From Candidatus Poribacteria bacterium (GTDB taxonomy: Bacteria; Poribacteria; WGA-4E; PCPOR2b), in NCBI GenBank assembly GCA_965223985.1, contig OZ245030.1, positions 3,151,720 through 3,215,719 of the forward strand: a stretch of DNA of 64,000 bases. The letters are read 5' to 3'. The notes beneath the pieces are model-generated. The model was not told the DNA's origin, searched no databases, and worked only from the letters and a program-made list of their open reading frames with translations. Position numbers and translations under genes: made by a program. Positions 27,777 to 63,620 of this stretch are shown piece after piece (positions within the stretch are counted from its first letter, which is position 1; each line of letters opens with the position of its first letter).

Positions 27777-27848
27777 CTCAACCCAACCTACGTTGCTGCC
27801 CACCGTTTTTGTGGATGATTTTTCCGGTCTTATGCTACAATTTTGTAT

Positions 27849-28199
27849 ATGGGTTTACAACAGATAAAAATATATCGTACGCCGGAAAATCGTGAGCCCT
27901 TTACGGATTGGTTAAAGTCAATACGAAATCAGGAAACACGAAAACGAATTCTAGTCCGACTTGATCGGCTTCGGCATAGTAATTTTGGCGATTGCAAATC
28001 CGTTGGAGATAATGTCTTTGAACTCCGTCTCCAATTTGGTTCTGGTTATCGTATCTACTTTGGAAGAATAGCAGAAAACATTGTACTGTTACTATGCGGT
28101 GGTGACAAATCCTCGCAGAATAAAGACATTGAAAGTGCAAAATCCTATTGGCAAGAATACAAGGAGGCGAACCATGAGACAATTTCGGGATTATCATGA
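27849..28199 (+). CDS. Type II toxin, RelE/ParE superfamily (HigB-like addiction-module killer protein)
   Basis: Matches the killer-protein family pattern ...FTDWL...RIL.RLDRL...GDCKSVGDNVFELRLQFGSGYRIYFGR..NIVLLLCGGDKSSQNKDIESAK. Overlaps the downstream antidote gene. Confidence 0.7.
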   Translation: MGLQQIKIYRTPENREPFTDWLKSIRNQETRKRILVRLDRLRHSNFGDCKSVGDNVFELRLQFGSGYRIYFGRIAENIVLLLCGGDKSSQNKDIESAKSYWQEYKEANHETISGLS

Positions 28200-28422
28200 T
28201 TACCTCATTGAAGAGGAATTGTCAAATCCGAAGGAGGCATTGCTTTATCTCGAAGTCGCGTTTGAAGAATACCTTAAGGATGGTGACGCCACAGCGTTTA
28301 TGTTAGCACTTCGCAACATTGATGAAGCACAAGGCACCAACCTAAGCAACACTTTGAAGCTATCCGCGAAAGAGCCCCGTAAAATTGCGAAGCTGTTTCA
28401 ACGTGCAGCTTCCCCGCTCTAG
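28174..28422 (+). CDS. Type II antitoxin (HigA-like addiction-module antidote protein)
   Basis: ATG at 28174 lies 6 nt after an AAGGAGG RBS and overlaps the toxin's 3' end. LSNPKEALLYLEVAFEEYLKDGDATAFMLALRNIDEAQG matches the antidote family consensus. Confidence 0.6.
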   Translation: MRQFRDYHDYLIEEELSNPKEALLYLEVAFEEYLKDGDATAFMLALRNIDEAQGTNLSNTLKLSAKEPRKIAKLFQRAASPL

Positions 28423-28430
28423 ATCTAGTT

Positions 28431-31460: not shown

Positions 31461-31931
31461 TCATATATGTTGTATAGGGATACCGATTTTTGCGACAGTT
31501 GCGCCGGTGGCGACCATTGGGTATCCGGGGAAGCATCGGTTCATTTTCATCTGATCGACGGGGCTACAGGCTTGTTTCGCGTGGAATGCGTGGAAGTTGA
31601 CAATCGGGACCGCGATGATTCGACCGTTTAGTGAATCCGGGGAAATTTGGCGCAGCAATTCGTGGACAACGGCGATACCGTTGAGTTCGTCGCCGTCGCT
31701 TATTGATTGTAGGTATAGCGTACGTTTTCCACAGGTTCCGTTGATTAGCACGACGGGCAAACGCACGGGCGTCCCGTCGGGCATGGATCCGACGGTAATG
31801 TAGTCCTCAACCCGTTTTCCGGGTTTTGCGACGAGTGATCCAACGGTGAGGCTGTTGTTATTTATCCACATTTTATCCACATTTATTTGTACGTTAGGGT
31901 TTGTGTCACGGTATGGTTGTATTTGTGGCAT
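31461..31931 (-). pseudogene. Truncated succinylglutamate desuccinylase/aspartoacylase (AstE/AspA) family gene (N-terminal ~155 aa only)
   Basis: Contains the family motifs (...VVLINGTCGKRTLYL..., ...NRCFPG...), but the ORF stops after about half the normal length, exactly where the REP cluster at 31340-31460 begins. Confidence 0.45.
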
Positions 31932-32094
31932 TTTAAACGTCCGGGAAACGGACCGGTGAATGCCAACGCTAAGGACGATTGGAACAAGAAAAGCCGAATG
32001 CGCTATTCGGAAATTGGAGCGGAGTATTGTGTTTGGTTATGTGTTTGGTTGCCGGAGGTTTCAAAAGCGTTGGGTTTCGCTATCTCCAGCGAGT

Positions 32095-32300
32095 GTCGCA
32101 CGCAGTAAACCTACAAAGCGATTCGTTATAATGCACATGTTTCGGCATACCCGCTCTACCCAACCTACAAAGACTACAAAGACTACAAAGACTATCGCAG
32201 TCGCTATTCGCTCCTTTGATCCCTACCCAACCTACAAAGACTATCGCACTCACTATTCGTTCGCTTGATCGCTCAGTTGATCTACCCAACCTACGAAAGC
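32095..32300. repeat. REP-like cluster with a tacaaagac microsatellite
   Basis: ctacccaacctacaaagactacaaagactacaaagactatcgcagtcgctattcgctcctttgatccctacccaacctacaaagactatcgcactcactattcgttcgcttgatcgctcagttgatctacccaacctacg. Confidence 0.6.
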
Positions 32301-32974
32301 TACGAAATACGGGCGACCACGACCGCGACGGGTCCTTGTTGCCAGACGCATTCGGCGTCGAACCCTGCGGCGCGGGCGGCTTCGAGTTCCTCCTCAAGCG
32401 GGAAATACGTGTCTTCCTCCGCCCATTGCGTGAAATATTCCCGTGCACGCGGTTCATCAATTCCACGCGCGACCATATGATCAATCCAGTTTCGCCACGT
32501 TGCCTCGCGTTCAGGGGGCGCCGCTGGCATCGTTGCGTCCGCATTGACGAAGGCGCCGCCAGATCGGAGCGCGTCGTAAATCCGCCGGTAGAGTGCGCGT
32601 TTCGCATCCATTGTCGGTACATGGTGAAGCGCTAATGACGCCGCGACAGCTTTGCACGGCGGCAGCGGCATGTTGAACGACGATTCGGTGAAGCGAACCC
32701 GTCCGTCAAACCGCTCGAGCCGCGTTCGTGCTTGTACTAGCATCTCGGGGTCGATGTCGATGAGTTCCACAGTTCCAGAACCGTCCGCCGAGAGAATCGC
32801 CTCGGAGAGCGCGCCGGTACCCCCGCCGAGGTCGAGGGTCAAGCCCGGCGTTGTGCGGGCAATTTCGCGCGCAGCGACAGCTAGCATCGTCTCGTAGCCC
32901 GGAATGAAGCGGCGAATCGTTTCGTCGTAAGTGCGGATTTCAATGCCGAGGTGACGGTGTACGGAGTGGTTCAT
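32300..32974 (-). CDS. Class I SAM-dependent methyltransferase
   Basis: Motif I LDLGGGTGALSEAIL and downstream acidic motifs. The ATG at 32974 (MNHSVHRHLG...) was chosen because the ORF track's longer ORF reads through from the upstream RAYT remnant. Confidence 0.65.
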   Translation of the reverse strand: MNHSVHRHLGIEIRTYDETIRRFIPGYETMLAVAAREIARTTPGLTLDLGGGTGALSEAILSADGSGTVELIDIDPEMLVQARTRLERFDGRVRFTESSFNMPLPPCKAVAASLALHHVPTMDAKRALYRRIYDALRSGGAFVNADATMPAAPPEREATWRNWIDHMVARGIDEPRAREYFTQWAEEDTYFPLEEELEAARAAGFDAECVWQQGPVAVVVARIS

Positions 32975-33404: not shown

Positions 33405-33686
33405 CTATCTCCGTTTGTTCGATCTCGTGATGGTTACAACGACTGCCGTATCCTTCCGGCGTTCGGCTTCCTGACAACTGATGAACCTACCTGTTTTTGC
33501 ATCGCGCCCGACCTTAATGGTAGTTTCACCATGTTTCCGCCCCGCCTCGCCACCACCGTGCTTGCGAAAAACGACCTTTTCTACAGCCTGTTGAACTTGT
33601 CTTTTTGTGAGCTTCCCACGTTTGGGCGGGTACTTAACGATTCTTTCTCTAGCCACTCTAATCACCTCCCTAGGACCGTGTTTCAA
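33405..33686 (-). CDS. Hypothetical small basic protein (93 aa), second gene of a REP-flanked two-gene cassette
   Basis: Starts 1 nt after the stop of the 208-aa ORF on the same strand. Lys/Arg/Gly-rich (KHGGGEAGRKHGETTIKVGRDAKTGRFIS); no confident family assignment. Confidence 0.5.
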   Translation of the reverse strand: MKHGPREVIRVARERIVKYPPKRGKLTKRQVQQAVEKVVFRKHGGGEAGRKHGETTIKVGRDAKTGRFISCQEAERRKDTAVVVTITRSNKRR

Positions 33687-34313
33687 TCAGCGGCTCGCAT
33701 AAGTCGTCAACCATTCCGCTAGCAAGCAAGTATAATCAAATAAAATCAGCTCTTCAACCGTTAATTGATTCACCTCAGCCAGCTGAGGCAAATCCCTCCT
33801 AAATTCTTGGTAACGTTCCCAAATGATGCTTCCACTTGGAATTTTCTTACGTCTTGATGCGGTGCTCAGCCAATTTCGTACAACTGTTACAACTTCTTCG
33901 GGATTGTTGTTATGAGCCTGAATATCTTGCCCTGCAATATCCGAAATAAATTGTTGATACCGATACCGTTCTTTATCCAGTATGAGACAATTTTTCCTTT
34001 TTTGTTCCTTCAGACCAAATTTCTTTGCGCCAATAAAAACCCCCAATTCCAAAGGCATATTGAATCGAGGAAAACGTGAAGTCTCGTCTAATTCCGTTCG
34101 CGATATATCGTGAATCCCATAACGACAAGCTGCAACAATGTTATAGATTTTATCAATCCGAACTTGGCTGGCGTCTTCTTCTTCGAGGGCACAACGGGCA
34201 ATAAATCCGCAATCGTGTACAGCAAAAACCATTGCATCAAACAAAGGTTTATAGGGCACATCAATGGGACAATTTAGAAAAACATTGTGATTATAGCTTT
34301 TGGGTGAACTCAT
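33687..34313 (-). CDS. Hypothetical protein (208 aa) with a Rossmann-like (possibly TIR/SLOG-like) N-terminal region, first gene of the REP-flanked cassette
   Basis: N-terminal pattern NVFLNCPIDVPYKPLFDAMVFAVHDCGFIARCALEEE...GIHDISRTELDE...MPLELGVFIGA resembles alpha/beta nucleotide-processing folds; the assignment is weak. Confidence 0.55.
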   Translation of the reverse strand: MSSPKSYNHNVFLNCPIDVPYKPLFDAMVFAVHDCGFIARCALEEEDASQVRIDKIYNIVAACRYGIHDISRTELDETSRFPRFNMPLELGVFIGAKKFGLKEQKRKNCLILDKERYRYQQFISDIAGQDIQAHNNNPEEVVTVVRNWLSTASRRKKIPSGSIIWERYQEFRRDLPQLAEVNQLTVEELILFDYTCLLAEWLTTYASR

Positions 34314-34339
34314 GATTTGCTATGTCTGTGTGTTTAAAC

Positions 34340-34800
34340 CCATCTTGCTCCCCCCTTTTTTAAGGCGGGACTGAGGGGGTAGTAGCGTGTGTCGCGATTC
34401 GGAGCAAGTTTTTGTAGGTTGGGTAGAGTCAACGGCGAAACCCAACGTTTTTGAAACGTCCGTTCAGCCGACCGGTTAACGGCAACACGAGAACGATGGG
34501 AACGACAAAAAGGAACAAAAGGCAATGACACTATACGGGATTTGTATGATTGTGTGGAAACGCGACGCGTTTTGGTGTTCGGGAGGTTTCAAAAACGTTG
34601 GGTTTCGCTCTGTCGAACAATTCTCGCACACAATTAACGAACAGACCGATTCGTTATAATGCACATGTTTCGGCATACCCACTCTACACCAACCTACAAG
34701 AACTACAAAGACTATCGCCTTCGCTATTCGCTCCTTTGATCCTAACCCAACCTACAAGAACTGTTTGTTTGATGCCTTCAGCGCAATACGATAAGCATTA
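34340..34800. repeat. Hairpin repeat plus MITE-like and REP-like elements
   Basis: gggactgagggggt hairpin relative; then cgaaacccaacgtttttgaaacgtccg...ccgggaggtttcaaaaacgttgggtttcgct inverted termini and ctacaccaacctacaagaactacaaagactatcgccttcgctattcgctcctttgatc. Confidence 0.6.
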
Positions 34801-34856
34801 TGCGCGGAATATTATGCCATATTTTAAGGACATATACCAACGAAAACCACAAAGAG

Positions 34857-35399
34857 TTATTCTTTGCCGATGTCGGGGTTGATGGGGATTCCTGCGCCTG
34901 TGCTCCAGTTCGCGTCGTATACGCCGGCTTGGACGTAGCGGTGGAAGCTGGAGTGTTCCCAATCCTTTGGGGCGGTAACTAAGCCGTGCTTGACGGGATT
35001 ATAGTGGATGTATTCAACGTGGTTGATATAGTCTTGAGTGTCTTTGACCGTGTGTTCCCAGAATCTGCGTTGCCAGAATGCGCGCTCGTTTTTGGTTTTG
35101 CGCGATGTTGAAGTAGCACGTTCAAATGTGGTTTGGCAGTGACGGGTGAAGTAGCTTTTGATTTGCCGCCATCGGGTTGAGAAGTCGTGGTCGTCGTCGG
35201 GCAGCGTCCAGATGGTGTGGAGGTGGTCGGGTAGCAGGACGAAGGCATCAATCTCGATCGGATGGCGTTCCATCGTGGAGCGGAGCGCTTGGCGTAGGAG
35301 TTTTACGTTTTCCGGTTGGCAGAGAAAAGGTTTGCGGTCATGGGTCACGACCGTGAAGAAGTAGGTTGCGCCATTGATTTTTGCACGGCGGTAGTTCAT
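34857..35399 (-). mobile_element. Intact REP-associated tyrosine transposase (RAYT; IS200/TnpA_REP-like), 180 aa
   Basis: MNYRRAKINGATYFFTVVTHDRKPFL..., the HxH motif LLPDHLHTIW and catalytic Tyr region YINHVEYIHYNPVKHGL. The gene is surrounded by REP sequences. Confidence 0.85.
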
Positions 35400-38260
35400 G
35401 GAGGTCGCACCATTGTATTATTATGTATATTAAGATGTGGGTTTTGTGGTATTCGGAGCATTATGCCATATTATTGGGACATATATCAACGAAAACCAAG
35501 AACAACGGAAGCCAACGATCAGCTGAGCGATCAAGCGAACGAATAGGGAGCGATCAAGGGAGCGAATAGCGACCGCGATAGTCTTCTCCGTTCAGCCGAC
35601 CGGTGAATATCGACACGAGAACGATCGGAACGCGAAAAAGGAACGGGGTTGTTCGGAGTTTGGGGCGGTGTATTGCGTTTGGTATTCATTTGGTGTTCCG
35701 GAGGTTTTAAAAACGTTGGGTTTCGCTCTGTCGAACAATTCTCGCACACAATTAACGAACAGACCGATTCGTTATAATGCACATGTTTCGGCATACCCGC
35801 TTTACACCAACCTACAAAGACTACAAGAACTACCCAACCTACAGAAGCTCTACCCAACCTACGGGTTGCACGGAGGATTTGTTTTTGTAGGTTGGGTAGA
35901 GCGGGTATGGCGAAACACACGCAGTTTATTGCGAGCGATTTATGTGTTGAGGTTGTTTGGTAAATGTTAAGGTGTAGCGAAACCCAACGTTTTTGAGACG
36001 TCCGGACATCAGACCGGTTAACGGCAATACCAAAGCAATCGGAACAAGAAAAAGCAAAGGGGTTGTTCGGAGTTTGGGACGGTGTATTGTGTTTGGTATT
36101 CATTTGGTGTTCCGGAGGTTTTAAAAACGTTGGGTTTCGCTCTGTCGACCAATTCTCGCACACAATTAACGAACAGACCGATTCGTTATAATGCACATGT
36201 TTCGGCATACCCACTCTACACCAACCTACAAAGACTACAAGAACTACCCAACCTACAGAAGCTCTACCCAACCTACGGGTTGCACGGAGGATTTGTTTTT
36301 GTAGGTTGGGTAGAGCGGGTATGGCGAAACACACGCAGTTTATTGCGAGCGATTTATGTGTTGAGGTTGTTTGTGGTAAATGTTAAGGTGTAGCGAAACC
36401 CAACGTTTTTGAGACGTCCGGACATCAGACCGGTTAACGGCAATACCAGAGCGATTGAAACAAGAAAAAGCAAGGGGTTGTTCGGAGTTTGGGACGGTGT
36501 ATTGTGTTTGGTATTCATTTGGTGTTCCGGAGGTTTTAAAAACGTTGGGTTTCGCTCTGTCGAACAATTCTCGCACACAATTAACGAACAGACCGATTCG
36601 TTATAATGCACATGTTTCGGCATACCCGCTCTACCCAACCTACAAAGACTAAGGGGTTGTTCGGAGTTTGGGGCGGTGTATTGCGTTTGGTAATTATTTG
36701 GGTTGCCGGAGGTTTCAAAAACGTTGGGTTTCGCTCTGTCGAACAATTCTCGCACACAATTAACGAACAGACCGATTCGTTATAATGCACATGTTTCGGC
36801 ATACCCACTCTACACCAACCTACAAAGACTACAAGAACTACCCAACCTACAGAAGCTCTACCCAACCTACGGGTTGCACGGAGGATTTGTTTTTGTAGGT
36901 TGGGTAGAGCGGGTATGGCGAAACACACGCAGTTTATTGCGAGCGATTTATGTGTTGAGGTTGTTTGGTAAATGTTAAGGTGTAGCGAAACCCAACGTTT
37001 TTGAGACGTCCGGACATCAGACCGGTTGACGGCAACACCAGAGCGATTGAAACAAGAAAAAGCGTAAGGCGTGGTTCGGAGTTTGGGGCGGTGTATTGTG
37101 TTTGGTAATTATTTGGGTTGCCGGAGGTTTCAAAAACGTTGGGTTTCGCTCTGTCGAACAATTCTCGCACACAATTAACGAACAGACCGATTCGTTATAA
37201 TGCACATGTTTCGGCATACCCACTCTACACCAACCTACAAAGACTACAAGAACTACCCAACCTACGGGTTGCACGGAGGATTTGTTTTTGTAGGTTGGGT
37301 AGAGCGGGTATGGCGAAACACACGCAGTTTATTGCGAGCGATTTATGTGTTGAGGTTGTTTGGTAAATGTTAAGGTGTAGCGAAACCCAACGTTTTTGAG
37401 ACGTCCGGACTCAGACCGGTTGACGGCAACACCAGAGCGATTGAAACAAGAAAAAGCGTAAGGCGTGGTTCGGAGTTTGGGGCGGTGTATTGTGTTTGGT
37501 AATTATTTGGGTTGCCGGAGGTTTCAAAAACGTTGGGTTTCGCTCTGTCGAACAATTCTCGCACACAATTAACGAACAGACCGATTCGTTATAATGCACA
37601 TGTTTCGGCATACCCGCTTTACCCAACCTACAAAGACTATCGCCCTCCCTATTCGGTCGGTTGATCTACCCAACCTACAAAGACTATACGGGATTTGTAT
37701 GATTGCGTGGAAACGCGACGCGTTTTGGTGTTCCGGAGGTTTCAAAAACGTTGGGTTTCGCTCTGTCGAACAATTCTCGCACACAATTAACGAACAGACC
37801 GATTCGTTATAATGCAGATGTTTCGGCATACCCGCTCTACACCAACCTACGGGTTGCACGGAGGATTTGTTTTTGTAGGTTGGGTAGAGCGGGTATGGCG
37901 AAACACACGCAGTTTATTGCGAGCGATTTATGTGTTGAGGTTGTTTGGTAAATGTTAAGGTGTAGCGAAACCCAACGTTTTTGAGACGTCCGGACATCAG
38001 ACCGGTTAACGGCAACACCAGAGCGATTGAAACAAGAAAAAGCTAAGGCGTGGTTCGGAGTTTGGGGCGGTGTATTGTGTTTGGTAATTATTTGGGTTGC
38101 CGGAGGTTTCAAAAACGTTGGGTTTCGCTCTGTCGAACAATTCTCACACACAATTAACGAACAGACCGATTCGTTATAATGCACATGTTTCGGCATACCC
38201 GCTCTACACCAACCTACAAGAACTCAACCCAACCTACAAAGGCAACGAAAATTACAGTTT
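35400..38260. repeat. Higher-order tandem array (at least 5 copies, ~420-580 bp period) of a composite unit: a MITE-like element with ~30-bp inverted termini plus a REP hairpin pair
   Basis: Unit termini are AGCGAAACCCAACGTTTTTGAgACgTCCGGA ... TCCGGAGGTTTtAAAAACGTTGGGTTTCGCT. A perfect REP palindrome ctctacccaacctac-N23-gtaggttgggtagag and a 33-nt REP (TGTTTCGGCATACCCGCTCTACCCAACCTACAA) occur in both orientations. The unit repeats at roughly 35640, 36065, 36470, 36660, 37075, 37490, 37700 and 38040. All ORFs here are repeat translations. Confidence 0.75.
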
Positions 38261-38510
38261 TTACAGTCTATAAAAAAAGGGGTGAATTACGAAACAAGAA
38301 TAATACGTTTTATATGAATTGGGGGAGGATGTCAAGGCGGGGGGATTTTATGATTTTTTTATGAAACCGGATTCGGGGGATTGCGTATTTTTGGGTACGA
38401 TGTCAGGTTTAGGATCTCGTTGTCGATTTCGGCAACTGGGTCATGCAGAGAAACCAAGTTTCTGACAAAAACTCGGTTTCCGGTATTCCGTGAAACCTGC
38501 GAAATAAGCA

Positions 38511-38860: not shown

Positions 38861-38989
38861 TGTTATGATTTAGGAAAGGAACAACTACCAATTATGGATA
38901 GTTCAACTAAGGCTTGCGAATCTGGCAAGCGAAACAAAATCAAATTCAATCCTTCAACATACAAACATGCAAGGAGGAAACATACAGTC

Positions 38990-41900
38990 ATGTTGAGTAG
39001 AATTTCGAAAATGAGTGTTTTCGGTATCGTTGCGCTCATGCTCGTTCTCGGGCTGGCGTCGGACGATGCGCAGGGACGGGATCCGGCAGCTGGAACATAC
39101 GTGGTAACAATGCAAACAGAACCATCTGTGCTGCGCGCAGCAGACACAGCTACGGTGACGTTTACCCTCACTGTCGACCTTCGGGAAAACAAGTCTACTC
39201 AAGACCCAATCCCGGAGGATCAGGCTAACGCTGATACGGCGGAGCGTACGGTCACCATTAACATTCCGGGAGGGTCGACAGGGTGGTCGCCCAACCCGGT
39301 TGCGTTATCCGGAGAGACTGCGGTGGACCCGGGCGAGGTGAGTTTCGCTAAAACTACTGTTATCACCGACAACACTCTCGCGTGGATTTCCGGGTCTAAC
39401 GCACGGAAGCTGAATATCAAAATTGTCGCAGGAATTGACGGTAATGGTGTATATACCATCGTATACGCAGCGGCGACTGTGCCTAACCGCAAAGGCGATA
39501 GCTACAGATTTTTAATTGACAACGCAGACACCAAAGACATTCCGTATAGCGTTGATTACGCGACGAGCGGATCGGGAACGGTCACGATGAGTCCGTACAG
39601 CCCGTTGGACGCGATTGTTGGCGGCGATGCTGATGATAAAAACGCTTGGAACGGCAAATATGTTTTCAATAGCAAGACGGCGTTAAGACCGTTGAAGTTT
39701 ACTTACAAAGCGGCGGGTTCTATGCCAAAGGATTCAACCGTTTCAATAGTTATGACGGGTGGATTCAGCCTTCATGGAAAGAGCAGTTCCGTAATTTCCG
39801 TGAGCGGTTCCGGTTCTCCAGAACTTTCTACTCCCGTAGATACCGTTGTAGTAGATGAAAGTACTACGGTAGTCGCTACAGTGAAGGCAGAGGGCGGGCT
39901 GGGAGCCGGCCAGTCGATAGCCATAACCATTAGGGAGCTTGTGATGCCGGAGGTCGTAGCGGCAGCCGATGCCCCGGATACGGATAATACCATTACAGTG
40001 ACTTCTACGTCGGGTACTACGAACTTTCAAGACGATGCCCGCCCGGTTGCTATTGACAATGCTGCTGGAGATGTCGACAAAGGTTTATTCGAGTTCTACA
40101 CGACTGCAGCGCCCGGGACCGGTGAAATGACGATTAATTCTGGCGGCGACCCGATTCAAAACATGCGCGTCGTGGAAGGCACTGACCTCGGGACATTGGT
40201 ATTTGGAATTACGGGCACGGACGGTATGGGACCGGACGCCAAATTTCAGATTAAGGTTCCGGGCGCCCCTTGGCCCGAGCCTATTAAGGCGTCCGGCACG
40301 ATTGGCGTTGTTGCCGATTCGGAAGCCGCCGGACACACGGCGAATGCGGAGATTGGCACTGGCGGTGCGGCTCGCACACTCAGCGGAAGCCTTACAACTA
40401 ATACACTTCAATCTGGTACAAATAATCCCGAGGCTAATGCAAATTTGAACGATACTGATAACGGCGGGATTACGTACCGAGCCGGCGCGATATCGGTACA
40501 CGGCAAGCATGAGTTCATGCTTTTGACCAGTTCCGGTCCGCACGGCGCCACATTGAAAGAGAGGACCGGCGGGGACGGGGCTGACGCGTACCCCCGGTAC
40601 ATTGAAGTCACCGCGAAGCACGAAAGCGGTACGTTCGTCGTTAGAGAGGGCGGATCGCCGTTAGTGCAGTCAAAACCCGCGAACGAGCACACGCTCCAGT
40701 TAGTCTTTAAAGCCACTGGCTACATGCCGGCAGGGATGGTTGTGTTTAGGTTCCCGGATAGATGGAAAAGTCCTCGCCGTGACGTCGCTCCGCCGTTTGA
40801 AGTGGGAGAGGTGAGGTTTAGCAATAACGCGACGTTTATTGTCAACACCGACGGGACCATCACTGCGACGGGGGACTGGCGAGATGAGGAAATTGTAGTT
40901 ACCTACAGAGGCATGGTTCCGGGCGAGGCGGGTACCCCGCCCGAGTCACACACTTTTACCGTGGATGCATCATCGTTCGGAGGTGATGCTAGCTTCCCGG
41001 CCCCGGCGGCCCGACCGGCTGCTTATTCCCATACGATTGGTCCCAATCTCGCGGCGGATGGCAGCGGCACACTCGCGATTGAGCCGAAGAATGCGAATGC
41101 CGGCGAGACGATTAATTTGAATATAACTTACACAGCCGCGGGCACGATGGAAGATGGATCAGTTGTTGAGGTTACCATCCCCGAAGGCTGGCCTGATCTT
41201 GATGCGCCTGGCACATCAGTCGAGATCGGCGCAGAGGGCATCGTGGCAACCTTGAATGAGTCGAAGAGGACGCTGACCGCTACAACTGTTGATGATATGG
41301 TCACTGATTCCAAACTCGTGTTCAACGTCACGGGCGTTACAGCGCCGGCTGTCGGCAGAGGTTACCAGTTCACCGCGCAATCAAAATCGCACGGAGAACT
41401 AAAGAGCCTTTCGTCAAGGCAAATCTCCGGTGCAGTCATCAATATCAGCAACGTGGCTGCTGGTTCCGCCCTGCTTACGCTAGTGAGGGAAGACGGAACG
41501 ATGGCGGAATCTGCCGAACCCCTGGATTCGTTTGAAACGGCCAAAATCACTTTTACGGTTGGCTTGGCGATGCAACCCGGGGCGGAGGTTAGGGTCACGG
41601 TTCCGGATGGCTGGACGAATGAACCTTTCCAGGACAACGGCATGCCGCGTACGAGCGGTGAGGTTACGCTTGAAGGGAAGGCGGATCTTAGCGTCGAGGG
41701 AAGCGTGCTGATCGCCAAGGCGAACGCTCAGATTAACCCTGGCGAAACAGTGACGTTCACCTACCATAAGCCGACCGCGCCTGAAGGCGAAACAACATCG
41801 TCTTTCGATACACAGGCGTCAATTGTTGAAGGCGGGGGTTTACTGGCGGTTGCAAATCAGCAAACAACTGTGGTCGTTAGAAGCAAGGTCACCGCGTTGA

Positions 41901-44900
41901 CGCTTACCGCCGAATCGGCGACGAGCGTGTTCGTAGGCGATCCGGTCAAACTCACCGTTAGCTCGGATGCGCGTGCTCCGGTTCGCGGTCTTGCGGTAAC
42001 GTTAGCGACCGATCCGGCTGATACAGGGATGTTCTCCCTGACCGAAGACGGGACAGCCACCACTTCGGTGACGATTGAGGATTCGGCTACTACGATGTCC
42101 ACCACGTTTTATTACATAGGCCCAAGTTCCATTGATACGGCATCTGTCGATGTCGAGTTGACGGCGACGGCTATGGTGGATGGCGAAGCCGTTGCATCTG
42201 ATCCCGTGGAAGTTAATGTCAGGTCCACGATTAGCATGCTGCAGGTTAACGGCATGCATGATGATCCGGAACCGGTGGAGGTTGGTGCCGCAATTACGGT
42301 GACAGCGATCGGTAAAGACGGCAGAGCCACCGTAACGGTAACTGACGCTGAAGAAGAGGCGGTCGAGTCACTAACAAATCTTGGACTTGATGTCGACTCC
42401 GATGCTACTGACGTACCGGCAGGTAGTGTTGCTTACAAGCGTAAAATTGAACTGCCGGACGATCTTGCCGAAGGCGATTACACCGTAACCGTGACTATTG
42501 ACGGCGTTTGGTTGCCAATAGAGATCAGTGTGGTGGCAGCCAGAGCACAGGTTACCGAATTGACGCTCACCGCGTCAGCGGATAATTTCTTCGCGGGCGA
42601 GTCAATCACAGTCACTGTTGCATCGGATGCTCGTGCACCCGTTGACGGTCTTGAGGTGACATTGTCGACAGATCCCGCAGATTCGGGAACGTTCTCCGAT
42701 CCCGAAAGCGAGGAGACCCTCAAGGGAGGGATGGTGACGATTGAGGATGCTGCGGATTCAATGTCTGCAGATGTTAATTACACCAACTCTGCGAGGGGGA
42801 CTTTCATGCTGACGGCGACAGCTATGGTTGATGGCGAGGCCGTTACATCTGACCCGTTGGAAGTTACGGTCAACCCCACGATTACCGTTCAGGTTAACGG
42901 CATGGACGCACCGGAAGCGGTGTTGCCCGGCGCCACAATTAGTGTGACGGCGAGCGGTAAAGCAGGCGGAGGCACCGTAATGGTAACCGACGCTGAAGGC
43001 GAAGCAGTCGAGTCATTAACAGGGCTTGGACTTAATGTCGACGCCGATGCTGCTGACGTTCCCGAAGGCAGCGTTGCCTACATGCGCGACATTGAACTGC
43101 CCGCGGATATTGCTGACGGCACTTACACAGTTACCGTGACAATTGGCAGCGAGTCGGTGCCAGTGATGTTGGAGGTCATGACACCCACAGAACCGGTCAC
43201 CGCTATCGCGATTGTACCGGATCCGACCAGCGTGTTTATCGGCGAGGACATTGCCGTCTCCGTGACGCTGTGGAGCGGTGCCGAAGAAGGGGCTGCCTCG
43301 GCAGCTATGGTCATCAACCTGACGGATGGCGAAGCCGGCGGTAGTTTCACCGATACCGAAGGCAATGCTATCACTTCGGTCACTATAGCCGTTGGAGGTT
43401 TCGACGCGTCTGCGAAATATAGCAATGCCAGCAGAGGCGAAATCACGCTGACCGCGACGGCAGCCGATGAGGCGTTGGAACTTGAGCCGGCAACCGCCGA
43501 TGTCACGGTCAAGCCCTCGATTTACAATTTTGAGGTTAACGGCACGGACGAGCTAGGCCCGCTGACGGCTGGCGTCACAATTACTGTGTCGGCGACCGGA
43601 AAAGAAGGTAAAGCCACCGTAACGGTAACTGACGCGGACGGCGAAGGGGTTGTGCCATCGAAAGGGCTTACAGGACTTGATGAAGAGCCCGATGAAGAGG
43701 GCAACGTTGATTACACGCGTAAATTTGACCTACCGGTCGTTCTTGCCGATGGCATTTACACAGTTACGGTTACCATTGCCGGCGAGACTGCCGCAATGGC
43801 AATCGAAATCATAAACGACCAATCAAAACCGGCGTTGAGCAACCAGAAGGTATTGCCCGACACGGTAGCGAGCGGCAGTGTGATTACGCTTAGAATCGAC
43901 GTGAGTTCTAATGTGCCTAATCCCGAGTTGTCAGTGATGGCGGATGTCAGCGAGATTGATGCCGACCAAGCCGCTGTTCAGTTGACGAAACTGCCCGGGA
44001 CGGAGAGCACCTATGCCAACATCTACGTGGTCAAAAACAGCGACCCGCAAGACGATGGCGAGAAGACCATCACGTTCATGGCGACTGATAGGATTGGCGG
44101 CGCAAGCGAAATGACTGTGTCCACGTCCTTGAAGAACGACGTTACGCCTCCGGTGCTGAGCGATCCGACCGCTATGCCTTCACCAGTGGTGAACGGTATG
44201 GACGTTACCATTTCGGTTAGCAGTGAATCCGGTCTCACGGTCACGGCAGATGCTTCCGAAATCGGCGGCGGCATGGTGACGCTGACCGAGGGTACGGTTG
44301 ACGACGGTATGGATGCCAACGGCAACGGTAATGGTATGGATGCCAACGGCAACGGTAATGGCATGGATGCCAACGGCAACGGTAATGGTATGGATGCCAA
44401 CGGCAACGGTAATGGCATGGATGCCAACGGTAACGGTAATGGCATGGATGAAGATATGGTCGGCACGGGCATGTATAGCAGCGACCCGATCACAGTCGCC
44501 GTTACTGAAGGTGGCGATCAGACCATCACCGTCAAGGCGACCGATGCCTCTGGTAACGAGGCTACCATAGACGTAACCGTCACGGTTGAGGTGCACGAGG
44601 TGACAAGCGTTACTTTCGTTCGCACGGGCGATACGGTTACGGTAACCACGATGGGCACCGCTGGATTGAAAGCGGAGTTCAGCGTCTTCAATGAAGCTAT
44701 GAAGATTATCGGTGAGAAGGCGATGACGGAATCGGATGATGGCGGAAGCTATACAGGCAGTTTCATCATTGTTGTAGACGCCCATCCCGCTGGTGAGTAT
44801 TGGATTTCTAGCAGCGTGGGTACTGCTGCCAGTATGACCGCAGAAGGTGCACTCACGATCGACCACGGGGCGCATTTCACCCTGTCAATCGGCGCGGGTA

Positions 44901-46102
44901 CGCATATAATCCATATCCCGTTAGATGTTAAGCAGATTAACGGCGAAGATGCGTTGATTGACACCGTCGGCGACCTATACGATGCGCTCGGCGAAGCGGT
45001 CAACTACATCATTACGGTCGGCGACGACGGTGGATGGAAGACTTACCTCGGCGATATGAGCGCGGGCACCGCAGCGGACGCGGCAATCGGCGACGATACC
45101 GGTTTGATTGTGGTGATGTCCGACGCTAAGACGCTTGAACTCGTTGGCGATGCGCTAGGTACCGCCGGCGCTTCACAAATTAACATTGACGTGGGGAACA
45201 ACCTCGTCGGTGTACCGCTTGATCCGGTGGTGGATATGATGATTAGCGCCGCGCTGGTCGAAGGTGTTAGTTCAATCTCGGTCTCCAAAGCCGATGGAAT
45301 GGGATTCCACACGATTAGGGAACCCGGCGACGACGGCGACGGTCCTGTCATAGGCGGCGTCGGCTATCTAGTTTCCTACATTGGAGCGGAACCAGCCAGC
45401 ATCCCGATATTCGGTTCAGCATGGGAGAACGACGGATCGGTTTCGGCAGCTCCTGCAATCGCCTTCAGCGGTTCGCAGACGCCGGTGCTGTATGTTGAGG
45501 GCGGCGTTATGGACGAGTTCGACATGTTGTCACGAGTTCCTGAACTCCGTGTCACTGTAAAGAACCTGTCTACAGGCGCTTCGCTCGACACCGTTCTCGG
45601 AACGGAGCAGTCTGCGACAGCGTACAGCGGTACGTTTGTTGAATTGAGCCGCCACGCAGCGAAGGCTGGCGATGTGCTGGAGATAGTAGCGCATTCACCG
45701 AACCCGTACGTTGGTGTTCGACCGGTTCAGCAGATTGTTGTTAGCGCGGAAGAGGTGTTGACGAGCCGTATCAGCTTGCCCGACCTGGAAGTCTACGAGA
45801 TTCCGTCGGAGAGCGAGCTGTTGGCTAACTACCCGAATCCGTTTAACCCTGAAACGTGGATTCCGTACCGGTTAGCGAAAGCTGCCGAAGTGACGTTGGA
45901 TATTTATGACACCAACGGACGCTTGGTACGGACCATTGATATCGGCTTCAAACCAGCCGCTGTGTACGAATCACGTGCATCAGCGATTTACTGGGATGGC
46001 CGCAACAACTACGGTGAACGCGTTGCCAGTGGCACGTACTTCTATCACTTAACTGCGGGCGATGATTATGCATCAACTCGCAGAATGGTGATCCTGAAGT
46101 AA
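38990..46102 (+). CDS. Giant secreted repeat protein (2370 aa) with Ig-like repeat modules and a T9SS-type C-terminal sorting domain
   Basis: AAGGAGG RBS then the ATG at 38990 (12-nt spacing) and signal peptide MLSRISKMSVFGIVALMLVLGLA. Four ~210-aa internal repeat modules (TALTLTAESATSVFVGDPVKLTVSSDARAPV... / TELTLTASADNFFAGESITVTVASDARAPV...). C-terminal CTD NYPNPFNPETWIPYRL...LDIYDTNGRLVRTI...WDGRNNYGERVASGTYFYHLTAG...MVILK. Confidence 0.85.
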   Translation: MLSRISKMSVFGIVALMLVLGLASDDAQGRDPAAGTYVVTMQTEPSVLRAADTATVTFTLTVDLRENKSTQDPIPEDQANADTAERTVTINIPGGSTGWSPNPVALSGETAVDPGEVSFAKTTVITDNTLAWISGSNARKLNIKIVAGIDGNGVYTIVYAAATVPNRKGDSYRFLIDNADTKDIPYSVDYATSGSGTVTMSPYSPLDAIVGGDADDKNAWNGKYVFNSKTALRPLKFTYKAAGSMPKDSTVSIVMTGGFSLHGKSSSVISVSGSGSPELSTPVDTVVVDESTTVVATVKAEGGLGAGQSIAITIRELVMPEVVAAADAPDTDNTITVTSTSGTTNFQDDARPVAIDNAAGDVDKGLFEFYTTAAPGTGEMTINSGGDPIQNMRVVEGTDLGTLVFGITGTDGMGPDAKFQIKVPGAPWPEPIKASGTIGVVADSEAAGHTANAEIGTGGAARTLSGSLTTNTLQSGTNNPEANANLNDTDNGGITYRAGAISVHGKHEFMLLTSSGPHGATLKERTGGDGADAYPRYIEVTAKHESGTFVVREGGSPLVQSKPANEHTLQLVFKATGYMPAGMVVFRFPDRWKSPRRDVAPPFEVGEVRFSNNATFIVNTDGTITATGDWRDEEIVVTYRGMVPGEAGTPPESHTFTVDASSFGGDASFPAPAARPAAYSHTIGPNLAADGSGTLAIEPKNANAGETINLNITYTAAGTMEDGSVVEVTIPEGWPDLDAPGTSVEIGAEGIVATLNESKRTLTATTVDDMVTDSKLVFNVTGVTAPAVGRGYQFTAQSKSHGELKSLSSRQISGAVINISNVAAGSALLTLVREDGTMAESAEPLDSFETAKITFTVGLAMQPGAEVRVTVPDGWTNEPFQDNGMPRTSGEVTLEGKADLSVEGSVLIAKANAQINPGETVTFTYHKPTAPEGETTSSFDTQASIVEGGGLLAVANQQTTVVVRSKVTALTLTAESATSVFVGDPVKLTVSSDARAPVRGLAVTLATDPADTGMFSLTEDGTATTSVTIEDSATTMSTTFYYIGPSSIDTASVDVELTATAMVDGEAVASDPVEVNVRSTISMLQVNGMHDDPEPVEVGAAITVTAIGKDGRATVTVTDAEEEAVESLTNLGLDVDSDATDVPAGSVAYKRKIELPDDLAEGDYTVTVTIDGVWLPIEISVVAARAQVTELTLTASADNFFAGESITVTVASDARAPVDGLEVTLSTDPADSGTFSDPESEETLKGGMVTIEDAADSMSADVNYTNSARGTFMLTATAMVDGEAVTSDPLEVTVNPTITVQVNGMDAPEAVLPGATISVTASGKAGGGTVMVTDAEGEAVESLTGLGLNVDADAADVPEGSVAYMRDIELPADIADGTYTVTVTIGSESVPVMLEVMTPTEPVTAIAIVPDPTSVFIGEDIAVSVTLWSGAEEGAASAAMVINLTDGEAGGSFTDTEGNAITSVTIAVGGFDASAKYSNASRGEITLTATAADEALELEPATADVTVKPSIYNFEVNGTDELGPLTAGVTITVSATGKEGKATVTVTDADGEGVVPSKGLTGLDEEPDEEGNVDYTRKFDLPVVLADGIYTVTVTIAGETAAMAIEIINDQSKPALSNQKVLPDTVASGSVITLRIDVSSNVPNPELSVMADVSEIDADQAAVQLTKLPGTESTYANIYVVKNSDPQDDGEKTITFMATDRIGGASEMTVSTSLKNDVTPPVLSDPTAMPSPVVNGMDVTISVSSESGLTVTADASEIGGGMVTLTEGTVDDGMDANGNGNGMDANGNGNGMDANGNGNGMDANGNGNGMDANGNGNGMDEDMVGTGMYSSDPITVAVTEGGDQTITVKATDASGNEATIDVTVTVEVHEVTSVTFVRTGDTVTVTTMGTAGLKAEFSVFNEAMKIIGEKAMTESDDGGSYTGSFIIVVDAHPAGEYWISSSVGTAASMTAEGALTIDHGAHFTLSIGAGTHIIHIPLDVKQINGEDALIDTVGDLYDALGEAVNYIITVGDDGGWKTYLGDMSAGTAADAAIGDDTGLIVVMSDAKTLELVGDALGTAGASQINIDVGNNLVGVPLDPVVDMMISAALVEGVSSISVSKADGMGFHTIREPGDDGDGPVIGGVGYLVSYIGAEPASIPIFGSAWENDGSVSAAPAIAFSGSQTPVLYVEGGVMDEFDMLSRVPELRVTVKNLSTGASLDTVLGTEQSATAYSGTFVELSRHAAKAGDVLEIVAHSPNPYVGVRPVQQIVVSAEEVLTSRISLPDLEVYEIPSESELLANYPNPFNPETWIPYRLAKAAEVTLDIYDTNGRLVRTIDIGFKPAAVYESRASAIYWDGRNNYGERVASGTYFYHLTAGDDYASTRRMVILK
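44306..44440 (+). repeat. Five near-identical tandem copies of a 27-bp unit (third-position T/C alternation) inside giant gene 1, encoding (MDANGNGNG)x5
   Basis: gg(t/c)atggatgccaacggcaacggtaat x5, in frame. Confidence 0.8.
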
Positions 46103-46116
46103 ATGTTCGCCGCAGA

Positions 46117-46165
46117 TTCACCCTTTAGCTGCTAGGCGGGCTCTGTACTGCTTAGCAGCTAATTT
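46117..46165 (+). terminator. Candidate intrinsic terminator of giant gene 1
   Basis: agctgctag-(15 nt)-cttagcagct stem followed by aattttttgtttt. Confidence 0.5.
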
Positions 46166-46187
46166 TTTGTTTTAGTTTGAAATCACC

Positions 46188-46215
46188 CCCCTCAGTCCCC
46201 CCTTGGTAAGGGGGG
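46188..46215. repeat. Copy of the CCCCCTTGGTAAGGGGGG hairpin repeat
   Basis: cccctcagtccccccttggtaaggggggagg; same family as the 26820-27015 array. Confidence 0.5.
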
Positions 46216-46269
46216 AGGAGAACAACAGTTCCAACTATTTAAAAAATTGCGGTACGAGAGAATAAACAA

Positions 46270-46305
46270 CTTTCAAACTGGTTGTTACTTGTGTTATAAT
46301 AGATA
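46270..46305 (+). promoter_or_regulatory. Candidate extended -10 promoter for giant gene 2
   Basis: tttcaaa ... TGtTATAAT (ctggttgttacttgtgttataatag). Confidence 0.4.
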
Positions 46306-46469
46306 TGTTTCGACGGCTTTATAAAACATAATTGGTCTGGTGTAAAATTTTTTGTTGTTTGTTTCATGAATTTGCTTTATGAAGTGTTTTGATTGGTCTT
46401 GGTCGGGCTCACTTTCCGAAACCCGCATGTGAGCCGAATTGATGAGCGAAATTTTTGGGAGGTTGAATA

Positions 46470-59064: not shown

Positions 59065-60900
59065 GTTTGGGCTGAGGGATGAATCCAGGGACTATCGCCT
59101 AACATCCCTATCGAGGTCGCTATCGTGCTCCCTTGATCTATTCGCTACTTTGATCCCTACCCAACCTACAAGTACTATGCACGCATCCCGGGCGGCGGAC
59201 CGAACAATCAGCGGTTGAATGTTTTTGAGATGTCCCGGGAGCCAATCGGCGAACATCAACAACAGAGCGATTGAAACATGAAAAGGCAAGTTTAGGATTT
59301 GGAACCGTGCAATGGTGTCAGAATTTGTTGGGAATGCGGGAGGTTTCAAAAACTACAAAAGCTACCCAACCTACAGTAACTTTATGAATTGAGAAATCGT
59401 TCACGCTTGGACATTGGGTGAAGCGGAGAAAGGAGGGACTATCGCCTTCGTTATTCACTCAGTTGATCCCTACCCAACCTACAAATACAAGAGGAGTGAC
59501 GGTGAAGAAGATAGGTCGAGTTATTGTAGGTTGGGTAGAGCGGATTTGATGTAATACAGGAAGTGTTTTGGAGCGGTCAGTGTGTTGACTTTGTTTGGTA
59601 AATGTTATGATGCAGCGAAACCCAACGTTTTTGAAAGGTCCGGACAGCCAACCGGCTCTAATGAACCCCACCAGCGTGGAAAACAAGAACAAAAGCCAAT
59701 AACAGCGGTTTATTGCGATTGGTATGTATTTGGATTGCGGGAGTGTTTTGTAGTTTTCGTTGAGGGATGAATCCAGGGACTATCGCCTAACATCGGTATG
59801 CAGAACTACAAAGACTATCGCAGTCGCTATTCGCTCCCTTGATCGCTCAGTTGTTCGTTGGCTTAACCCAACCTACACGAACTTTATGAATTGAGAAATC
59901 GTTAGCGCTTGTAGGTTTGGGTTGATGGATGAATCCAGGGACTATCGCCTTCGCTCATTGCTCAGTTGATCGCTCTACCCAACCTACAAGTACTATGCAC
60001 GCATCCCGGACGGCGGACCGAACAATCAGCGGTTGAATGTTTTTGAGATGTCCCGGGAGCCAATCGGCGAACATCAACAACAGAGCGATTGAAACATGAA
60101 AAGGCAAGTTTAGGATTTGGAACCGTGCAATGGTGTCAGAATTTGTTGGGAATGCGGGAGGTTTCAAAAACGTTGGGTTTCGCTCCGTGAACATTGCCAA
60201 GGTCATCGCTCGGAAATTAGGACGGTGTATGGGGACAGGAACGGTTTTGGAATTATCCGCTCTACCCAACCTACAAATACAAGAGGAGTGACGGTGAAGA
60301 AGATTGGTGGAGTTATTGTAGGTTGGGTAGAGCGGATTTGATGTAACACAGGAAGTGTTTTGAAGCGGTCAGTGTGTTGAATTTGTTTGGTAAATGTTAT
60401 GATGCAGCGAAACCCAACGTTTTTGAAAGGTCCGGACAGCCAACCGGCTCTAATGAACCCCACCAGCGTGGAAAACAAGAACAAAAGCCAATAAAAGCGG
60501 TTTATTGCGATTGGTATGTATTTGGATTGCGGGAGGTTGCAAAAGCGTTGGGTTTCGCTCCGCGAACATTGCCAAGGTCATCGCTCGGAAATTAGGACGG
60601 TGTAAGGGGGCAGGAACGGTTTTGGAATTATCCGCTCTACCCAACCTACAAAAGCTACCCAACCTACAGTAACTTTATGAATTGAGTAATTGTTCACGCT
60701 TGGACATTGGGTGAAGCGGAGAAAGCAGGGACTATCGCCTAACATCGGTATGCAGAATTACAAAGACTATCGCAGTCGCTATTCGCTCCCTTGATCCCTC
60801 GCTATTCGCTCAGTTGATCGCTACACAAACTACAAGAACTGCTTAACCCAACCTACAAAAGCTATAAAAGCTAAGTTGATTTTAACCCAAACTATGCAGC
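59065..60900. repeat. REP/MITE-like repeat cluster with a ~870-bp internal duplication, immediately upstream of membrane-protein paralog 2
   Basis: Repeated blocks ggatgaatccagggactatcgcc..., ctacccaacctacaagtactatgcacgcatcccgg...cgggaggtttcaaaaacgttgggtttcgct, gcagcgaaacccaacgtttttgaaaggtccgga...; 59083-59590 and 59950-60460 are near-identical. Confidence 0.7.
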
Positions 60901-62849: not shown

Positions 62850-63620
62850 GTTTTTGTATGTTGGGTTGGGATCGAGCCATCGAAACGAGAAAAGGCAATG
62901 ATATCGTTTAGAATGTGGAACGGAGTGTTGAGTTTGGTATGTATTTGGTTTGACAGAGAAAACTATCGCCTAACATCGGTATGAAGAACCACGAAGACTA
63001 TCGCCTAACATCGGTGTGAATAACTACAAAGACTATCGCCTAACATCGGTATGAGGAACTACAAAGACTATCGCCTCACATCGGTATGAGGAACTACGAA
63101 GACTATCGCCTCACATCGGTGTGAAGAACTACAAAGACTATCGCCTAACATCGGTGTGAGGAACTACAAAGACTATCGCCTAACATCGGTGTGAAGAACT
63201 ACAAAGACTATCGCCTAACATCGGTATGAAGAACTACGAAGACTATCGCCTAACATCGGTATGAGGAACTACAAAGACTATCGCCTCACATCGGTATGAG
63301 GAACTACGAAGACTATCGCCTCACATCGGTGTGAAGAACTACAAAGACTATCGCCTAACATCGGTGTGAGGAACTACAAAGACTATCGCCTAACATCGGT
63401 GTGAAGAACTACAAAGACTATCGCCTCACATCGGTATGAAGAACTACGAAGACTATCGCCTAACATCGGTGTGAAGAACTACGAAGACTATCGCCTAACA
63501 TCGGTGTGAGGAACTACAAAGACTATCGCCTTCGCTATTCGCTCAGTTGATCGCTCAGTTGATCCTAACCCAACCTACAAGACCGTGATCTCAACCCAAC
63601 CTACAAAGACTGCTAGGGAT
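62850..63620. repeat. REP-like cluster containing a 35-bp tandem array (about 16 units, 62950-63530) with higher-order duplication
   Basis: Unit gactatcgcct(a/c)acatcggt(a/g)tga(a/g)gaactac(a/g)aa x about 16 without unique spacers; units 3-8 are re-duplicated as units 9-14. Ends in ...ctatcgccttcgctattcgctcagttgatcgctcagttgatcctaacccaacctacaag. Confidence 0.8.

Follow-up and report, generated by a model that had tools for sequence, protein, structure and literature searches.

Systems of REP-associated tyrosine transposases (RAYTs, also called TnpA_REP), which accompany repetitive extragenic palindromes (REPs), have been published for Pseudomonas, E. coli and Marinomonas, together with RAYT-adjacent tandem clusters of REPINs, the inverted doublets of REPs (PMC3116915, PMC8266576). 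In P. fluorescens SBW25, one ordered tandem cluster of REPINs, flanking sequence included, lies beside each RAYT (PMC3116915), and the multiplication of REPs around tnpA_REP has been termed the formation of 'REPtrons' (PMC8266576). The RAYTs of E. coli and S. maltophilia cut between C and T of a CT dinucleotide to either side of a REP (PMC3479197, PMC8266576), and GTAG-tagged REP families are known in cyanobacteria (Di Nocera et al. 2013, PMC3733652). No paper linking Poribacteria with REP, REPIN or RAYT was found in the literature searched. Here we describe a repeat array at 35587-38244 of a 64-kb stretch of a sponge-symbiont genome, that of a Candidatus Poribacteria bacterium (contig OZ245030.1, positions 3,151,720 to 3,215,719; hereafter the window), which we analysed together with 8-kb loci fetched from relatives. 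We put at about 85% the probability that this array is a REPIN cluster beside the RAYT believed to mobilise it, that is, a REPtron. Bacterial repeat systems of this type are known; the present one is unusually large and does not constitute a new element class.

Tandem Repeats Finder (TRF), a repeat search, and maps of anchors and modules all place the copies of the array head to tail in one orientation, in the order E1-E2-E3-E3b-E4-E5-E5b-E6. Within 35624-37639, TRF reported overlapping arrays whose periods are 414, 179 and 394 bp (matches 95-98%; scores 655-1937), and the repeat search recovered 7-9 in-register copies at spacings of 414/415/179/415/394/585 bp. The array, the RAYT gene and the remaining copies in the window are the following.

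35587..38244, plus strand: REPIN cluster of five full units (356-358 bp), one left-truncated unit and two right-half copies, plus linkers and mini-modules (TRF, repeat search, maps)
35587..35822, plus strand: E1, left-truncated, its left side fused to an inverted GACTATCGCC...TTGATC module at 35552-35585 (repeat search, module map)
35863..35886, plus strand: 24-nt linker GGGTTGCACGGAGGATTTGTTTTT, which recurs at 36277, 36871, 37266 and 37851 (module map)
35880..36236, plus strand: E2, full REPIN (unit alignment, single-stranded DNA fold)
36294..36650, plus strand: E3, full REPIN, 98.3% identical to E2 (unit alignment)
36650..36830, plus strand: E3b, right half only, joined directly to the end of E3 (anchor and module maps)
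36888..37245, plus strand: E4, full REPIN (unit alignment)
37283..37638, plus strand: E5, full REPIN, 99.4% identical to E4 (unit alignment)
37632-37678: 47-nt GACTATCGCC...TTGATC module, before E5b
37685..37850, plus strand: E5b, right half (repeat search, maps)
37868..38224, plus strand: E6, full REPIN (unit alignment)
34857..35399, minus strand: RAYT gene, 180 aa (NCBIfam, Pfam, PDB)
34407..34704, plus strand: E0, REPIN copy across the RAYT gene from the array (anchor map, unit alignment)
31936..32175, plus strand: left-truncated REPIN, after which come (TACAAAGAC)x3 and two GACTATCGC modules (anchor map)
59160..60670, plus strand: second cluster, with four REPIN-derived copies (anchor map, unit alignment)

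The original prediction, made from the letters of the window, had proposed a tandem amplification of at least five copies at 35400-38260, and TRF and the repeat search bear this out with five full and three partial units in the assembled sequence. The full units form two sub-families (E2/E3 and E4-E6) that are 94-99% identical over ~357 bp, and the differences within the array include mini-module indels of 20 and 27 nt as well as two partial copies unlike each other. Each full unit shows the same order of anchors (outer-left, inner-left, inner-right and outer-right arm), with ~90 nt after the outer-left arm, ~151 nt after the inner-left arm and 86-114 nt after the inner-right arm; from the outer-right arm to the next outer-left arm there are 39 nt. 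The 17-mer AAACCCAACGTTTTTGA of the arms has 20 matches in the window against 0.24 expected, and the outer motif CTACCCAACCTAC has 43 against 0.8 expected, spread over at least eight intergenic regions. That the elements and the cluster exist is certain.

The termini recur elsewhere in the window, as had been proposed, and also in related genomes. The two recurrences named in advance (34440-34640 and 59500-60650) correspond to copies at 34407-34704 and 59519-60656, and the copy at 31936-32175 had been missed; the three core types described for them proved in the unit alignment to be variants of a single core, all of them homologous. In the second cluster, a variant copy (59180-59381) is followed by a right-truncated one (59519-59760), one at 59988-60281 and a full copy (60311-60656) that is 68% identical to the array units. 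E5b has the same core variant as E0 (98% identical to 34530-34697), and one-armed copies are common in the anchor map. Every REPIN copy in the window shares the same orientation, and GC skew is positive over nearly the whole window.

The array resembles that of SBW25 (PMC3116915) in its hairpin-forming inverted REP doublets, in the RAYT with an adjacent REPIN cluster, and in near-identical tandem REPINs that include their flanks. It differs in host phylum and in scale: the REPs of an SBW25 doublet are spaced 71 and 110 bp apart, compared with REPINs of ~357 bp in the window, and the largest SBW25 tandem cluster holds four REPINs (>700 bp), compared with 2.7 kb holding five full and three partial copies here. 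With tandem REPIN clusters beside RAYTs (PMC3116915) and REPtrons (PMC8266576) already described, the claim that the array goes beyond ordinary REPs does not stand.

The boundaries of the element were established from related genomes. A scan of one genome per species with a 21-nt arm as query found matches only in three Candidatus Poribacteria chromosomes and one Calothrix bin. In the Poribacteria loci the element is mostly single, ~350 bp long, located at scattered sites, and runs from AGTnnnTGTAGGTTGGGTAGAGCGG to CCGCTCTACCCAACCTACAnnnACT. These single elements are bounded by GTAGGTTGGGTAGAGCGG...CCGCTCTACCCAACCTAC, and the terminal inverted repeat (TIR) of the original prediction is a second, inner inverted repeat. 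The natural element thus spans GTAGGTTGGG to CCAACCTAC. It follows from the single-copy bounds that the perfect 'REP palindrome' reported earlier joins the right end of one element, through the 24-nt linker, to the left end of its neighbour; its motif is present, with a gap of 24 nt instead of 23. The ~150-bp element with ~31-bp TIRs fared similarly: 31-nt inverted arms, AGCGAAACCCAACGTTTTTGAGACGTCCGGA and TCCGGAGGTTT(T/C)AAAAACGTTGGGTTTCGCT, do exist (90-94% complementary, 103-104 nt apart), and the segment that they bound measures 166 bp. The 24-nt linker also occurs in two sister strains (L014rc 5477 and 10139, L015rc 5472).

Outer and inner arms share the 7-mer GTTGGGT/ACCCAAC, and each half of the element reads on one strand as GTAG-GTTGGGT-loop-ACCCAAC. 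Each half is a GTAG-tagged REP, and the whole ~357-bp element is an inverted REP doublet, or REPIN. What had been read as a miniature inverted-repeat transposable element (MITE) plus a separate REP is therefore one structure, the 'TIR' and the 'REP palindrome' being two arms of a single REP stem. In E2, an AGT-like flank is followed by GTAG-GTTGGGT, an 83-nt loop 'A', ACCCAAC-G and a ~135-nt core; to the right of the core come C-GTTGGGT, loop 'C', ACCCAAC-CTAC and AAAGACT. The right end of the REPIN carries CCTACAAAGACT.

We surveyed the window and all fetched loci for this REP. An ACCCAAC lies at most 125 nt downstream in 110 of 148 GTAG-GTTGGGT sites, and the loop lengths of these 110 are bimodal (28 sites below 20 nt; 66 sites at 80-89 nt). 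Loops in the Poribacteria-like lineage measure ~12-15 nt or, more often, ~81-90 nt. The left REP of E0 is of the compact kind (GTAG-GTTGGGT-15 nt-ACCCAAC, 34414-34446), as are REPs with 12-nt loops in L023 and 11-14-nt loops in Calothrix. The long loops hold their narrow length (81-90 nt; 66 of 110 in the 80-89 bin) despite almost fully diverged sequences, and at least two long-loop types (A and B) occur, usually paired as heterodimers.

Variation in the stem bears on which arms belong together. The REP flanking the RAYT in locus L019 has the form GTAG-GTCGGGT-83 nt-ACCCGAC, in which the outer arm of a half and its inner arm have changed in a compensatory way, and the downstream REPIN there combines a left half with GTCGGGT/ACCCGAC and a right half with GTTGGGT/ACCCAAC. 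Such unlike stems in the two halves of one REPIN favour pairing within a half as the conserved unit. A further stem variant, GTTCGGT/ACCGAAC, is found in L021, and in L017 both inner arms have GTAACCC/GGGTTAC instead of GAAACCC/GGGTTTC. As single-stranded DNA (ssDNA), a window unit folds into one long nested hairpin (minimum free energy -89 kcal/mol, z=-10.2), and a copy from locus L001 gives z=-5.0.

The identity of the neighbouring gene is clear. Its product scores 201.6 bits against the NCBIfam equivalog model for RAYT (NF047646; cutoff 80) and only 27 bits against the IS200 model (cutoff 55); it also matches Pfam Y1_Tnp. The closest solved homologue is E. coli TnpA_REP (PDB 4ER8, E=3.9e-40), and the alignment to it keeps the HUH motif (H-L-H), a tyrosine aligned to Y115, N119, H123, W99 and Q95. 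Residue roles have been described for the E. coli enzyme, in which W99 and Q95 contact the GTAG (PMC3479197). Its similarity to 4ER8 would place the RAYT nearer the E. coli-type Group 2 than the Pseudomonas Group 3. Identity to homologues is 66-96% in Poribacteria-like assemblies and 61-65% in many cyanobacteria; the latter figure suggests an old transfer between phyla. The window holds one RAYT copy, and RAYTs are usually single-copy (PMC5581495) and inherited vertically. The gene lies within the cluster, with E0 on one side and the array, from 35587, on the other.

This arrangement is also reminiscent of the E. coli REPtron and of bacterial interspersed mosaic elements, or BIMEs (PMC3479197, PMC8266576), with which it shares a REP whose stem directly follows a 5' GTAG, a CT close to the REP, REPs that combine with conserved linkers into mosaics, at times in tandem, and a RAYT that keeps the catalytic residues of TnpA_REP. 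The E. coli REP, GTAG-GCCGGAT...ATCCGGC, has the same architecture as that of the window. E. coli REPs, however, are ~35 nt long, with short loops and other stems, whereas the REP of the window combines a 7-bp stem with a loop that is often ~85 nt, and its REPIN has a conserved CT at a fixed 5 nt beyond CTAC.

Eight loci with RAYT homologues were fetched (L014, L015, L017, L019, L020, L021, L022 and L023), seven of them Poribacteria-like and one from Calothrix (L020). The same REP adjoins the RAYT gene in all eight, which makes nine loci with the window. L017 comes from a different species and a 5.09-Mb long-read contig labelled circular; its RAYT is 82% identical to that of the window, and the locus is syntenic and shares the methyltransferase and Laminin_G_3 genes. 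Here seven tandem REPINs end ~75 nt before the RAYT start codon (TRF 5.3 copies, 92%). RAYT-adjacent tandem REPIN arrays thus recur in the lineage and are present in independent assemblies. L014 and L015 are sister strains, known from long-read assemblies, with a RAYT 96% and flanks 99% identical to those of the window; their REPIN clusters lie on both sides of two RAYT copies, in an arrangement unlike that of the window, and neither locus has a tandem array at a TRF score of 80 or more. The RAYT-adjacent cluster is hypervariable, differing between strains with 99%-identical flanks.

In L023, REPs with 12-nt loops flank the RAYT, and in Calothrix (L020) an 88-nt REPIN flanks a RAYT 65% identical to ours. 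The Calothrix loci (L020 and loci within L002-L010) have the same GTAG-GTTGGGT...ACCCAAC REP in the same doublet, beside RAYTs 61-65% identical. Their REPIN is compact, at 88 nt with loops of 11-14 nt and a core of ~30 nt, whereas in the Poribacteria-like form all three variable segments are expanded.

The ends of the element were defined from 38 sites in Poribacteria loci, where CCTAC is followed by five purine-rich positions, a C (30/38), a T (30/38) and then no conservation; the 43 sites of the window agree (C in 34, T in 25). The element ends 7 nt past CTAC, with five purines and a conserved CT. Several junctions fall at this point. The half-copies E3b and E5b begin directly after ...CCTACAAAGAC/TA (36649/36650 and 37684/37685; a slash marks the junction or cut), right-hand pieces begin at the C/TA sites of full copies (AAAGC/TAAGG in E6, GACAC/TATACGG in the 34407 copy), and at the deletion junction at 59357 the right piece starts at the T of C/TAC. 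The right piece starts at the T of CT in three of the four resolvable junctions, which is suggestive and not significant, and the pattern could stem from 1-4-nt microhomology. All mini-modules keep the register ...AC/TA..., including the 9-nt TACAAAGAC x3 at 32165-32194, the 47-nt GACTATCGCC...TTGATC, a 35-bp x16 array, and the 20- and 27-nt inserts ending in CCAACCTAC. The 35-bp array lies at 62962-63531; its unit, ACTATCGCCTAACATCGGTGTGAAGAACTACAAAG, is repeated 16.3 times with 93% identity and is built of GACTATCGCC and TACAAAGAC mini-modules.

By homology with E. coli TnpA_REP, the RAYT would bind the GTAG and hairpin on ssDNA and would cleave and rejoin at the CT, and this activity would seed REPIN copies around its own gene. 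As for the route of amplification, we infer that the array most likely grew by segmental tandem duplication of a REPIN together with its linker, through unequal recombination or replication slippage, and that modules would later have been exchanged at the conserved REP arms. All units carry the same 24-nt linker, and in L017 two linkers alternate, one of them homologous to unique sequence flanking the window array (38238-38290). These linkers imply that units were copied together with a flank that is not REPIN, which argues for segmental duplication and not for repeated independent insertions. Strains whose flanks are 99% identical differ in their core and right-spacer modules at the orthologous intergenic site of 31960-32310, and they switch from one module to another at the conserved REP arms; recombination would thus also take place at the arms, with a BIME-like mosaic as the result.

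The array may alternatively be a direct product of the HUH enzyme, made by repeated C/T cleavage and strand transfer or by rolling-circle-like re-initiation, a route that we consider unlikely. Were it true, REPINs, half-REPINs and 9-47-nt mini-modules would have been strung head to tail enzymatically, the ~85-nt REP loops would be exchangeable cargo modules, and these genomes would hold natural footprints of RAYT strand transfer, so far seen only in vitro.

Several observations weigh against the view that the array is a REPtron. The left end of E1 is not at a CT. The RAYT has 45-nt direct repeats as its immediate flanks, along with GACTATCGCC modules, and the closest REPINs lie ~150-190 bp away; the two RAYT copies of the sister strains are atypical for a gene that is usually single (PMC5581495). 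Loops of ~85 nt are longer than those in a published table of GTAG REPs, 2-20 nt (PMC3733652). The REP stem is almost invariant, and its covariation rests on two lineages only; a folded REPIN may, in the predicted structure, instead pair outer arm with outer arm.

The 45-nt direct repeats (34805-34849 and 35454-35498; 87% identical) bracket the RAYT gene, and each contains a minus-strand promoter-like site, TTGATA/TTGGTA-18-CATAAT. The sister strains have, besides two full RAYTs, a ~100-nt fragment of the RAYT 3' end fused to a REPIN (L014rc 5000-5125). Together, the repeats and the extra copies and fragment suggest that the RAYT unit itself has been repeatedly duplicated and deleted.

Other explanations of the array were weighed against the same data. 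One rival, raised by the original prediction, is a DDE-type MITE with 31-bp TIRs, fused to a separate REP palindrome and mobilised or amplified as a unit by a classical transposase encoded elsewhere. The element does have much in common with a MITE, being short, non-coding, non-autonomous and hairpin-forming with inverted ends, and its 31-nt arms, 90-94% complementary, bound a 166-bp segment and are found with different cores. However, in related genomes these arms lie inside a larger element, whose own ends are better conserved; they share ACCCAAC/GTTGGGT with the supposed REP and co-vary with it within a half; pairing past AGCGAAACCCAAC is not retained in other genomes; one-armed copies are common; and single copies in L001, L003, L012 and L013 have no target-site duplications. 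No DDE transposase was found among the scanned window open reading frames, or ORFs (at least 150 aa; not every ORF was scanned), where the only transposase-family gene is the Y1/HUH RAYT, the type of enzyme to which REP-hairpin ends are tied. Of the proposed non-autonomous family, hairpin-forming repeats amplified head to tail remain, and a DDE-type origin is highly improbable. An integron origin deserves even less credence. The R''/R' boxes of attC sites follow the consensus RYYYAAC/GTTRRRY, which ACCCAAC and GTTGGGT fit, and the element folds as ssDNA, so that the inner palindromes could be taken for attC sites and the array for an integrase-less cluster (CALIN) of near-identical non-coding cassettes. 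Yet pairing and conservation run past the R boxes on both sides, single elements lie between unrelated chromosomal genes in several genomes, no tyrosine recombinase or integrase is among the scanned window ORFs, and the 7-mers are accounted for by the GTAG REP stem, which tracks the RAYT gene in nine loci. Nor do the 'cassettes' hold convincing ORFs. A 267-aa ORF through the repeats (35531-36334, minus strand) was rejected as a coding sequence; it has only a sub-threshold Pfam match, and the unit indels are not multiples of three.

It is also very improbable, if somewhat less so, that each unit is a structured small-RNA gene, amplified in tandem, which would have a TATAAT promoter of its own beside the long terminal stem. 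The predicted folds are very stable (z=-10.2), but stability is the automatic outcome of an inverted REP doublet, and the hairpin is not followed by a T-run. The letters TTAACG-N15-TATAAT, reported earlier as promoter-like, are indeed present, and TATAAT is kept in several right-hand spacer variants; as a promoter the site finds no support, since its 15-nt spacer is passed over by a sigma-70 scan for 16-18 nt and one or the other hexamer is lost in variants (32100-32130; L014rc 9640-9830). An unrelated spacer replaces the 'promoter' spacer at the orthologous site of the sister strains (99% flanks) and in most Poribacteria copies, and promoter-like and terminator-like sites are no commoner than in shuffled sequence. 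The suggested structured RNA family had no counterpart in Rfam 15, which gave no match at gathering score across the whole window; below that score, 34300-38300 (E<=10) yielded only generic plant and animal miRNA hairpins of at most 41.6 bits against 94. A tRNA/tmRNA scan found none. Improbable, though less remote than these, is an assembly artefact, in which the copy number or order would reflect expanded or mis-ordered near-identical repeats, the elements themselves being real. The units are 94-99% identical over ~357 bp, and two sister-strain long-read assemblies have clusters here and no regular TRF array. Against this, the differences among units are structured (sub-families, 20-/27-nt indels, partial copies), which is unusual for collapse or expansion, and the independent 5.09-Mb contig of L017 has a seven-unit array at the same place.

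Other features of the window and its relatives touch on the REPINs without bearing on the array. At 31461-32175, an AstE/AspA-family ORF of 156 aa has a counterpart of 326 aa in L017, and its start abuts the truncated REPIN at 31936-32175. From its short length and the start abutting a left-truncated REPIN, the ORF probably represents a pseudogene, located at a junction rich in REPINs. A conserved gene pair (208 aa and ~83-93 aa) occupies 33405-34313 on the minus strand and 743-1649 in L017, where the REPIN array has the pair on its other side and the 208-aa protein is 83% identical; in the sister strains the pair lies between the two RAYT copies. The 208-aa ORF has no Pfam, NCBIfam or PADLOC match, and the 93-aa ORF has no Pfam match.

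Between REP halves at 27792-28430 lies a two-gene block that encodes a Gp49/HigB-like toxin (PF05973, E=4e-6) and an 82-aa partner. This block of ~0.7 kb has no counterpart in the two sister strains with 99%-identical flanks, in which the site reads GTAG-TGTTCGTAGGTACGTAC-GTTCAG; the block is polymorphic, present in some strains and absent from others, and its junctions lie at GTAG/CTAC. Another Poribacteria chromosome (L008, OZ242326) holds an amplified partial unit of a different kind, a 216-bp tandem array of at least three copies (114-900) whose units are made of REPIN left halves and a terminator-like hairpin, AAAACCGAGTTTTTTCTTCAAAACTCGGTTTTTT. Immediately downstream of the window array, two giant ORFs (2402 and 3033 aa) span 38894-55571. 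A C-terminal sorting domain of type IX secretion is present in the first, which also contains an in-frame 27-nt repeat (x5.3) at 44309-44450.

Taken together, the apparent amplification of a MITE plus a REP is re-filed as a REPIN/RAYT cluster, and is not to be pursued as a new element class. What is unusual here is the host phylum, the REP loops of ~85 nt, the REPINs of ~357 bp (about three times the usual size), the 2.7-kb cluster, and the CT at a fixed distance from CTAC. The long-loop forms of Poribacteria and the compact forms of cyanobacteria make up a natural series in which the recognition target of a RAYT and the growth of REPIN clusters can be studied.

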